Assembly (NCBI GenBank): GCA_964475625.1
Contig: CAYYXK010000001.1
Span: forward strand, 30,935-94,934
DNA from: an uncultured Thermoplasmata archaeon
GTDB lineage: Archaea > Thermoplasmatota > Thermoplasmata > WALJ01
Direction of reading: 5' to 3'
DNA: 64,000 nt
The notes beneath the pieces are model-generated. The model saw only the letters and a program-made list of their open reading frames with translations, had not been told where the DNA came from and searched no databases. Both the position numbers and the translations under genes were made by a program. Every line of letters starts with the position of its first letter. Position 1 is the stretch's first letter. Positions 12,647 through 15,600 of the stretch are shown here, piece by piece.

Positions 12647-15600
12647 CGGGCTTTCGGAATCTCATGTAAGGAATGAGGTAAGAAAGCTCGTTTCGGAGTA
12701 TACCAGACTGAAAAACAGCATGGGAGAGAAGAAACTGCCGGAGATAAGCGAGGCTGATGTAAGAGCGGATTTCATAGACCCTCTTTTTGAGATGCTGGGC
12801 TGGAATGTGCGGAAGCCTTCGGAATACAACCGTGAGAAATATGTGCGCGGCGCCGGTTTTGCAGACATAGCCATACAGCTTGGTGGTGAGGCGGTGGCAT
12901 TCATCGAGGCCAAACGGTTCGGCTCCATACCTCCGGTGAACAGGAATGAAACAGACTGGATAGAGCAGGAAAGACAGGTCATGAACTACGCAATGACCCA
13001 CGGAATAAAGTGGGCCGTTCTCACGAACTTCGAGGTTCTGCGCCTGTTCAATGCGATGAACGGGAACCTGATATTCAGCATAGATACTCCTTATGAATAT
13101 GCGGACAAGGTGAAATACCTGATGCTGCTATCAAAGGAGTCCTTCAAGAATGGAGAGATAGAGCGTTTCGGCGAGCATGAGGAGAAGCCTGACATAGACC
13201 TTGATTTTCTGGAAAGGCTGAACAGGTGGAGGCTGGCCCTCGCCAATGACATATACAGAAGGAACGGAGAGAACAAGGCCCTGATGGAGAACGGGGAATT
13301 CTCGCTGGAACTGCTGATGAACGCTGTCCAGAGGCTTCTGGACCGGATGATAATCGTGAGATATGCGGAAGACAGGCTTATACTGGACAACCCGGACCAG
13401 ATGATGGCGATAAAGAATGCGTGGGAACCGACAAAGGCCTATACCTCGCTGTATTCCATGCTTCTTGAGTTCTTCAAGGGTTTCGACAGGATACATGACA
13501 GCAGCATATTCGAGAGAGGGCATATCTGCGAGAGAGTGGAGATGGACAGCGAGGTTCTGGCGAGGGTCATAGATGAGATGTACGCGGTGAACTTCAGGAA
13601 GTTCGACTTCGACATACTGGGAAACACCTATGAAACCTATCTCGGCAATGTGCTGGACTTCGGGAACGGAGGCATAGTTCTTAGGCCTGCGCAGGAGAGC
13701 AGGAAGAAGTCGGGGATATACTACACACCGCCATATGTGGTGGATTACATAGTGAAGAACACGCTCGGAGAGCTTATCAGGGGAAAGAGCGCCGAAGAGG
13801 TGGGGAAAATAAAGGTTCTGGACCCGTCCTGCGGTTCAGCCTCGTTCCTGATAAAGGCCTATGATTATTTCATAGGGTTCTATGAGGGCGAGAACGAAAG
13901 GATAGAGGAGAGAAAAAGGGAGATTCTGCAGGAGATAGGCAGGAACGGCAACGGAGTATCCGATTTCTCAGCTCTCGAAGGCCTTAAGAGGCACGAGGGA
14001 TACGAGAAAGAGATACTGAAAAGGAACATCTACGGCGTGGACCTCGACGGGCACGCTGCGGAAATCGCTTCCGTGAACCTGATGCTTAAAGCCCTGCGCA
14101 AGAAGGAGAAGCTGCCTCTCATACTGGGAGACCACATAAAGGTTGGAAATTCACTCATAAGCGGGGACGAAGCGACCCTTAAGAAATACTTCGGCGATGA
14201 CTGGAAGGACAAACGGCCTTTCAACTGGGAAGAGGAATTCCCGGAGGTCTTTCAGGGCGATAACCCCGGTTTTGATGTGATAATCGGGAACCCACCGTAC
14301 ATAAGGGTTCAGAACCTGCCGGAAGAGGACAGGAAATTCTTTGCCGAGAACTACAGGAGCGCTCTCGGCTCGTATGACATATATGTTCTGTTCGTGGAAA
14401 AGGCGATAGAACTGCTGAAAGACGGCGGAAGATTCTCATTCATCATGCCTCTGAAGTTCTTTCAGGCGGATTACGGTAAAAAGCTGAGAAAACTGATACT
14501 GGATACCTGCAACATAGATATGATAGTGGATTTCGGAACCACCAAGGTCTTCGGAGATGCCACCACATACCCGTGCCTTCTTTTCCTGACAAAGACGAAA
14601 AAGAGGAAAAAGAAGCTGAAATACATAAGGATAAAGAGGAGCGCTCCCGACCTGAAAGAGATAGCCGAGAAAGGGCTGGACAGGAAGAGCGCTCTGAACG
14701 AGAGGTTTGAGGTCTTCGATGTCAGTCAGGATTTGCTTACAGAGGAAACATGGAATTTTCTGAGAAAAGAGGAAGAAGATGTATTTTCCAGACTGAACCA
14801 AGTAAAAAGAACTCTTTCGAATATCACAGAGGATATTTTTCAGGGCATAACTACAGGAGCGGATAGCATCTTCTTTTTAAAGATAGAAAAAGAACTTGAA
14901 GATGGAAAAGTCGAGGTTGTTACTGGACTTGGGGAAAAATCGATCATAGAAACAAAATTTCTTAAACCGCTTCTAAAAGGAAAAGACATACGGAGATGGA
15001 ATATAGCGTATGATGGTTATCATGTTCTATTCCTTTATGATTTGGTGGATGGCAAAGCGGTTCTTTATAATCAAAAAGATATTAAAAGAAACGCACCCCT
15101 TACATGGGATTATCTCAAAAAATATGAGAGAGACTTGAAATCGAGAGAAGATGGAAAGTGGAAGAACACGGAAGAGTGGTATGACCATAGTTATAGAAAA
15201 AATTTGGAGAAATTCTCTCAACATAAGATTCTAACACAGGTTCTCGCCAAAAGAGCCAGCTTCACCTTTGACAGGGAAGGGAAGTATTACTTCGTAGGCG
15301 GCGGTAATGCCGGAGGGTACGGGGTTGTCCTGAACGAGGAATTCGGAAACTCTCCCGAAAAATACCTTTTCGTTCTGGCGCTCCTCAATTCAAAGCTTCT
15401 GGACTTCTATCTTCATTCCATAAGCACAAAGTTCCAGAACGATTATCATTCCTACGCAAAAAGGTTCATCGAAAGGCTGCCCATAGCTGAGGCGGAGCCC
15501 GAACAGGAGAAGGAACTCGCCGGCCTCGCCGATAAAATGCTTTCCCTCAACGAGCGCCTTGCGGAGATAGATGTGGACTTCGAGCGCCACCTTAACAGGC

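Follow-up and report, generated by a model that had tools for sequence, protein, structure and literature searches.

How does half a kilobase of AT-rich DNA come to lie inside a single reading frame, and from where? We examined this question in a 64,000-nucleotide stretch of DNA (hereafter the window) from an uncultured Thermoplasmata archaeon, in which an open reading frame (ORF) at 12636..16145 (+ strand, 1169 amino acids, TTG start) appears to encode a single-chain Type IIG restriction-modification (RM) enzyme. An earlier note on this DNA had pointed to an AT-rich island at 14740-15240, inside the putative target recognition domain (TRD) of the enzyme, and had proposed that a specificity module was replaced by recombination from a low-GC donor. 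Our analysis suggests that nucleotides 14772-15239 are probably a recombinant tract in an intact RM gene, within which the N-terminal half of the TRD was replaced by a deeply diverged allele.

The GC content of the island is 35.3%, compared to a mean of 49.7% (standard deviation 3.6) for 500-bp windows, or about 4 standard deviations lower. This is the minimum for any 500 bp of the 64 kb, the second non-overlapping minimum being 39.4%, and it agrees with the value of about 35% given in the earlier note. A two-changepoint maximum-likelihood fit to third codon positions of the ORF placed the limits of the island at codons 701-867 (nucleotides 14736-15236), with a GC content at third positions (GC3) of 0.311 inside and 0.641 in the remaining RM gene. 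The log-likelihood ratio (LLR) for these changepoints was 31.8, versus 11.3 or less across 100 shuffles, and codon usage is thus not uniform over the gene, a check that the earlier note had proposed. GC content at first and second positions (GC1 and GC2) is nearly flat over the island, and GC3 falls from 0.60-0.76 to 0.22-0.44. An amino-acid-stratified Cochran-Mantel-Haenszel test on island GC3 gave p = 2.5e-15 with a common odds ratio of 0.24. Amino acid composition was rejected as the cause of the AT-richness, as the same peptide written with host codons would have a GC3 of 0.63 and a total GC of 46%, compared to the observed 0.31 and 35%. The drop in GC is purely synonymous, and the composition of the encoded peptide is close to that of the remaining protein. 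Lys, Glu, Ile and Asn make up 12.6, 10.2, 6.6 and 4.8% of residues inside the island versus 9.2, 10.4, 6.4 and 5.1% outside, so that the supposed richness in these four residues does not distinguish it. The 3' end of the RM gene (15800-16145) has a milder second GC dip (about 42%), in which GC3 is kept at about 0.57 and GC2 is lowered to 0.20-0.24; amino acid composition, not foreign codon usage, therefore explains that dip.

The break in composition coincides with a break in identity to homologous proteins. The nearest homologues were P0002 (64% identity, encoded at 8001-11504 of locus L001), P0003, P0004, P0005 and P0006. Sliding profiles of amino acid identity against P0002 and P0003 ran at 45-80% over residues 1-500, 85-98% over residues 500-680, 36-56% over residues 700-850, 72-98% over residues 851-950 and 34-56% beyond residue 950. 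At the nucleotide level, the best-fitting tract against L001 spanned codons 713-869, with 47% mismatch inside and 13.8% outside (LLR 90). Similar junctions recur when other alleles are compared, with breakpoints at 713-872 for the window and P0003, 715-869 for the window and P0004, 723-859 for P0002 and P0004, and 718-859 for P0003 and P0004. The alignment against homologues that had been suggested as a check hence places the identity break (713-869/872) together with the GC3 break (701-867), the right edges being 2 codons apart. Together the two breaks delimit a low-GC3 tract at codons 713-868 (14772..15239, + strand) that corresponds to the N-terminal half of the TRD, and the island was correctly placed inside the target-recognition region. 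P0002, P0003 and P0005 do have low-GC3 tracts there, but of low identity, unlike the same low-GC patch at high identity that would have indicated an ancestral feature.

The tracts of these homologues have limits of their own, at codons 704-911 in P0002 (GC3 0.44 vs. 0.65), 664-932 in P0003 (0.41 vs. 0.65) and 538-962 in P0005 (0.29 vs. 0.48). P0002 and P0003, whose backbones are 88% identical, diverge over 669-929, as predicted by their own low-GC3 tracts. On the evidence of these alignments, low GC3 marks tracts that overlap but were replaced independently, in three genes or more. Tract and flanks also group differently. Inside the tract, P0002, P0003 and P0005 are mutually 58-71% identical and the window allele is 35-42% identical to each, while over the flanks P0005 stands apart and the window allele clusters with P0002 and P0003. 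P0006 has the reverse pattern, being the best match to the backbone of the window protein and unrelated over about 550-950, with identity lost near residue 550 and regained near 950. Identity to P0006 and GC3 delimit an exchangeable specificity cassette at codons ~556-945 (14301..15470, + strand), comprising the TRD and the half of the methyltransferase that follows its NPPY motif, and this cassette is the variable module of the RM family.

The sequences on either side of the tract have a different history from the tract itself. The left flank (codons 459-712; 14010..14771, + strand) has a host-like GC3 of 0.61-0.68 and is shared with the P0002/L001 lineage. Relative to L001, codons 551-712 are 88-89% identical in nucleotides and 79% identical in codon choice at identical amino acids, and codons 461-550 are 83% and 64% identical, respectively. 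Both RM flanks reach 88-92% identity in nucleotides, compared to protein identities of only 73% for the host GyrB and 64% for GyrA. Codon identity at identical residues between the same two hosts is 52% in gyrB and 46% in gyrA, without any 100-codon window above 70%, whereas it reaches 85% at RM codons 912-932 and is 41% within the tract. With flank values of 79-85% set against 46-52% in the gyrase genes and 41% in the tract, it follows that the two lineages shared the flanks, but not the tract, after divergence of their hosts. The C-terminal half of the TRD (codons 869-950; 15240..15485, + strand), which carries a GGGNAGG motif, also has host-like GC3 and is conserved within this cassette type. 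Over codons 869-911 the window and P0002 are 98% identical in amino acids but only 43% in codons, with synonymous sites saturated and GC3 of 0.60 and 0.42, respectively, a consequence of the low-GC3 tract that P0002 has at 704-911.

What the tract encodes can be judged from CamA, an orphan N6-adenine methyltransferase of C. difficile (PDB 7lni) and, among solved structures, the best sequence match to the methyltransferase and TRD of the RM protein (E 5e-34, about 24% identity). CamA has a catalytic domain at residues 1-320 and a TRD at 320-577 (PMC8187626). Its residues Q346, I349, R425, Q438, W439 and R441 contact the first three base pairs of the recognition sequence CAAAAA, far from the target adenine, while the contacts nearer to the adenine are made by S472/A473, S514/I517/Y521 and the methyltransferase loop residues H171/K172 (PMC8187626). 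We mapped CamA residues to the RM protein through the HMMER alignment, in which query residues 546-967 match CamA 160-546. The domain linker at CamA 320 corresponds to R710, 3 residues ahead of the left junction and the point as far as which the CamA catalytic domain aligns. Inside the tract lie the counterparts of Q346/I349 (Q736/T739, in an FQGITTGAD motif), R425 (E838) and Q438/W439/R441 (S852/Y853/K855). CamA Y455/K456 falls at the right junction (V869/L870), and S472/A473 falls beyond the tract at N891/A892 within GGGNAGG. The contacts reported for CamA place the predicted DNA-reading loops of the island at 14841..15200 (+ strand). In an AlphaFold (AF2) model of the RM protein, the tract runs from helix 711-721, which follows loop 698-710, to strand 864-868, and the left junction as modelled sits on the linker between methyltransferase and TRD. 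Loop 839-856 has a low predicted local distance difference test (pLDDT) score in the model, which is not surprising if the loop contacts DNA, since no DNA was included in the modelling. By this alignment the tract would read the distal bases of the recognition site. The swap would most likely have altered the recognition sequence at 2-3 bp, and for both activities at once, because one TRD serves methylation and cleavage.

We also compared the composition of the cassette across the family, using 67 genes retrieved with their DNA. GC3 of the segment aligned to the tract is below that of the N-terminal backbone in 84% of these genes, and strongly so in nearly all of the closest archaeal relatives, whichever type of TRD they carry. 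Among 22 close relatives, mean GC3 is 0.15-0.20 below the gene mean over about 545-945, with sharp edges at 541-556 and 946-961. Cassette GC3 is below backbone GC3 in every one of these 22 genes (backbone range 0.43-0.77; loci among L007-L074), and it varies little with the backbone (backbone mean 0.559, cassette mean 0.318, slope 0.19, r 0.21). In the 44 distant relatives, by comparison, cassette GC3 follows the backbone (means 0.449 and 0.403, slope 0.82, r 0.92). The difference is close to zero in low-GC hosts, and the gene at the high-GC locus L031 (0.86 vs. 0.85) has no trough. The GC3 of the window tract, 0.314, is the typical cassette value of the clade, and it is the flanking cassette parts, at 0.62 and 0.60, that are atypical and host-like. 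Since the tract has the cassette value typical of its clade, the donor could be any family member, even one from a genome of similar GC content. Of the proposal that the module was replaced by recombination from a low-GC donor, the coincident breaks thus uphold the recombinant tract, but a low-GC donor genome does not follow from its composition. Two candidate explanations for the AT-rich synonymous sites in the cassettes of this clade are a shared pool to which low-GC hosts contribute, and an escape of these cassettes, as recombination-cold DNA, from GC-biased conversion or codon selection.

The replacement probably came about through gene conversion or homologous recombination, with one crossover at the methyltransferase/TRD linker and the other midway through the TRD, both in conserved stretches. 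What was exchanged would be the TRD's N-terminal half, and what came in a deeply diverged allele that kept the AT-rich synonymous composition typical of the specificity cassettes circulating in the family. We infer the direction of transfer and its source, because the searches yielded no donor allele. Among 1.84 billion cluster representatives, searched exhaustively with HMMER, the best match to the tract was P0002 itself, at 47% identity; in a word-indexed protein search, the tract by itself had just two matches, at 44-47% identity; and scans of JGI metagenome contigs and IMG/VR with the back-translated tract peptide found nothing. With at most 47% identity in these searches and no match in the metagenome and viral scans, the donor is evidently unsampled. 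Local machinery for phase-variable or shufflon-type switching of specificity was not apparent either: no silent TRD cassettes and no repeats of at least 25 nt, inverted ones included, involved the TRD region anywhere in the 64 kb; recombinase genes were not looked for. The only repeat pairs touching the RM gene (D4 and I9) are short matches of 74-77%.

Several of these observations weigh against the replacement. Low cassette GC3 is a feature of the whole family, and low GC3 alone is accordingly no proof of recent import; the 22 relatives that show it are not phylogenetically independent. The search for a donor returned nothing closer than P0002, the left GC3 edge (codon 701, in a likelihood surface flat within about 10 codons) lies 12 codons from the left identity edge (713), and the predicted change in specificity was read through an alignment to CamA of about 24% identity. 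Even so, the tract and flank groupings are most economically read as one replacement of the centre, in the lineage of the window. The same groupings might be read with the polarity reversed, so that the island is the older resident and the flanks (about 459-712 and 912-948) were imported or homogenised by gene conversion with the P0002/L001 lineage. Exchange with that lineage did occur, given the excess of flank codon identity over host genes (79-85% vs. 46-52%), and an island GC3 of 0.314 beside a mean of 0.318 in the 22 relatives, with atypical, host-like flanks, fits this polarity. However, it needs two conversion tracts, and hence four crossovers, rather than one; the gap left between them would have to match a structural half-domain exactly; and the low-GC3 tracts of P0002 and P0003, centred on the same region, are a better fit to repeated replacement of the centre. 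We therefore regard reversed polarity as unlikely.

It is also conceivable that no recombination took place, and that the TRD core evolved fast in place under diversifying selection while local AT-biased decay lowered its GC3, for instance because a hypervariable region lacks biased gene conversion or codon selection. A trough that is family-wide, whose depth is unrelated to backbone GC3 in the 22 relatives and which all but disappears in low-GC hosts, would suit such a process. The step in mismatch from 12-14% to 47% within a few codons would not, and neither would synonymous sites that are saturated in the tract and unsaturated in the flanks, the incongruent groupings of the two, or high-GC relatives such as L031 that lack a trough, all of which make evolution in place quite improbable. 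A chimera of metagenome assembly, in which reads of a low-GC homologue were joined through conserved flanks, is suggested by the source of the sequence, a metagenome-assembled genome (MAG) of an uncultured organism, and by the existence of related genes with conserved flanks in similar habitats. Yet the Logan assembly of SRR7051160, made by another pipeline, contains a 21.9-kb contig that matches the window without a difference over 4426 nt, across both junctions; these lie in frame, and homologues from other samples show like tracts, so that an artefact is scarcely credible. Finally, AT-rich DNA is promoter-like in archaea, and the RM gene lies between gyrB and gyrA, so the stretch might have been kept for an embedded non-coding role such as an internal promoter or unwinding element for gyrA. 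The island ends 900 bp upstream of gyrA, however, and the trough is also present in relatives outside the gyrase operon (L002, L088, L013 and others). No Rfam match was found at E<=0.1 over window positions 10-20 kb, and a non-coding role seems highly implausible.

The architecture of the RM protein is that of an intact single-chain Type IIG enzyme with a TRD of the TaqI_C/CamA type, judged by motifs and domains that place nuclease, methyltransferase and TRD in one ORF. Pfam matches comprise Eco57I (2.5e-44, 152 bits), N6_Mtase, TaqI_C and HSDR_N, the PADLOC model REase_MTase_IIG matches residues 13-961 at 9e-140, and the AF2 model, built from 68 homologues, has a pLDDT of 86 and a predicted template modelling score (pTM) of 0.74. 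NCBIfam has no model above its cut-off for this protein. A PD-(D/E)xK nuclease core is predicted at about residues 37-150 (12744..13085, + strand) from an HSDR_N match at residues 37-67 and modelled beta strands at 64-149, and its triad of D77, E91 and K93 is invariant in alignments of 12 and 68 homologues. A gamma-class N6-adenine methyltransferase domain follows at about residues 351-710 (13686..14765, + strand; N6_Mtase 351-665, Eco57I 464-639). Its motif I is DPSCGSASF at 396-404 and its motif IV is NPPY at 552-555 (nucleotides 14289-14300). D396, P397, G400, S401, F404 and N552-P553-P554 are conserved in both alignments, and Y555 is invariant in the 12-sequence alignment. With the nuclease triad and the core residues of motifs I and IV invariant, the catalytic motifs are intact and the enzyme looks functional. 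TaqI_C (PF12950) matches residues 777-950 at 1.3e-10. Beyond it, residues 951-1169 (15486..16142, + strand) form a C-terminal accessory domain of about 220 amino acids, modelled as helices and a sheet at 955-1165, which belongs to the backbone and is closest in identity to that of P0006. It has no Pfam match and is absent from relatives of about 960-990 amino acids; relatives that align to 83% of the query measure about 970 amino acids.

Among enzymes of known structure, CamA-DNA complexes are the top fold match of the RM model (Foldseek E 3e-33, TM 0.77-0.79), followed by M.BseCI, BrxX/PglX, BpuSI and DrdV. The gamma-class enzymes CamA, M.BseCI and M.TaqI share with the RM protein the order of domains, the NPPY motif and a beta-cluster TRD of the TaqI_C type. 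However, they are methyltransferases only, whereas the RM protein adds a PD-ExK nuclease, a helical connector and the C-terminal domain of about 220 amino acids. The earlier note had pointed to the MmeI family (Type IIL), in which domain shuffling switches specificity, but the RM enzyme does not belong to it. In a scan at E<=0.01, PF20473 (MmeI_Mtase) is the only MmeI-named Pfam model to match, and its 44-bit match overlaps the stronger one of Eco57I (152 bits); as a candidate for the closest fold, the MmeI structure 5hr4 ranks 50th (E 5e-15, 13% identity), behind the structures just named. MmeI does share the single-chain arrangement of nuclease, methyltransferase and TRD, and natural variation in its TRD retargets it, which is the logic that the note had applied here, but the TRD of the RM protein is of the TaqI_C type. 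BREX PglX/BrxX has a related methyltransferase-TRD core and gave partial NCBIfam and PADLOC matches and fold ranks of 39-45. It was rejected as an identity for the RM protein at 133 bits against a cut-off of 500, as PglX is without a nuclease domain and the neighbours of the RM gene are gyrB and gyrA. No matches to other BREX components were seen in Pfam and PADLOC scans, save for an Lhr-type helicase resembling housekeeping Lhr. This gene lies at 5337-8093 of the window, 4.5 kb upstream of the RM gene, with DEAD, DEAD_assoc and WH_Lhr domains and a PADLOC BrxHI match at 5e-113, and is probably a housekeeping archaeal Lhr rather than a BREX component.

Reassortment of TRDs occurs in enzymes of the AloI/PpiI/TstI type. 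Allelic TRD replacement is documented in Type IIG and Type I RM genes (Furuta et al. 2010, PMC2853133), as is "domain movement" (PMC3077401). The window gene resembles these cases in that a diverged recognition segment is exchanged through conserved flanks within a conserved backbone, and in that one polypeptide would shift the specificity of methylation and cleavage together. It differs in that the replacement is confined to the N-terminal half of a monomeric TRD of the TaqI_C/CamA type, nested in a larger cassette (~556-945), and in that the tract is marked by a GC3 drop of 0.33; moreover, the comparison here is among distantly related archaea rather than among strains within a species. The literature that we consulted describes swaps of TRD alleles and deviating GC content of entire RM genes, and we found in it no GC3 trough limited to the TRD. 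TRD allele replacement in Type IIG genes is already known, and what is less expected is the half-domain junctions, the cassette-wide decoupling of GC3 and the residence of the gene in a gyrase operon.

The RM gene is embedded between gyrB (10709..12646, + strand; Pfam DNA_gyraseB, Toprim, HATPase_c) and gyrA (16138..18570, + strand; DNA_topoisoIV 3e-175, DNA_gyraseA_C), and its start shares 11 nt with the end of gyrB, its stop 8 nt with the beginning of gyrA. An RM homologue lies directly 3' of gyrB at nine or more related archaeal loci (L001, L004, L005, L010, L014, L017, L019, L049 and L087), and gyrA also follows it in L001, L004, L005, L049 and L087. Identities of GyrB and of the RM backbone are correlated (r = 0.93 over 45 non-independent pairs from ten loci), which suggests that the RM gene co-diverges with gyrB and is a long-term, vertically inherited resident of an essential operon. 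At 80 metagenome loci whose gyrB is more distant (55-68% identity), the place after gyrB is never taken by an RM gene, and gyrB and gyrA are adjacent in 37 of them. Embedding in an operon is not a general rule of the family, as other relatives adjoin unrelated housekeeping genes (HdrD-like, adenylosuccinate lyase, Cdc6). The gene for P0004 (58% identity; L002 8001-11495, L003 6262-9756) lies within an A/V-type ATPase operon, between the genes for the F and A subunits, a second case of a family member inside an essential operon. A Schlafen AlbA_2/HATPase_c_4 gene comes next and overlaps it by 10 nt. A bacterial relative of 30% identity in an Anaerolineae MAG (L042 1987-7696) has gyrB directly upstream and no gyrA downstream within the contig, and at L012 (298-5999) the order is RM, then gyrB. 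An archaeal gyrase paper describes gyrBA operons only, and we found no description in the literature of an RM gene inside gyrBA.

Elsewhere in the window we observed two unrelated repeats. A perfect 27-nt direct repeat (TATGAACTGAAGTGCGGCGCCCCATCT) occurs at 20215-20241 and 20416-20442, with a spacing of 201 nt, in overlapping ORFs on both strands. Segments 33280-33827 and 36894-37444, 3.6 kb apart, are 71-78% identical and lie within ORFs 32521-34212 and 36138-37817, which are probably paralogous genes.

The island is a clean natural case of a probable specificity change by a half-TRD swap, with its junctions on a structural boundary, and is visible from base composition alone. We predict that the window and P0002 enzymes share the adenine-proximal part of their recognition sites, while 2-3 bp at the distal end set them apart. 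Should this hold, TRDs of the CamA/TaqI_C type could usefully be spliced at codons 713 and 869 for engineering. As cassette and backbone GC3 are decoupled across the family, scanning GC3 might suffice to locate the specificity modules of RM genes not yet characterised. Few defence genes would be expected to keep a conserved place in a gyrase operon. It is possible, although we put this forward only tentatively, that a Type IIG RM gene has been vertically inherited in the gyrB-gyrA operon of Thermoplasmata-related archaea, with a sister allele in an A-type ATPase operon, and that nested recombination keeps renewing its cassette from a pool with GC3 of about 0.32 that is decoupled from every host backbone. 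If this is true, the cassette-limited GC3 trough would be a general signature of a shared low-GC pool, or of recombination-cold DNA escaping GC-biased conversion, and the RM backbone of the system would be domesticated or addicted to its operon, while the recognition module is exchanged freely.

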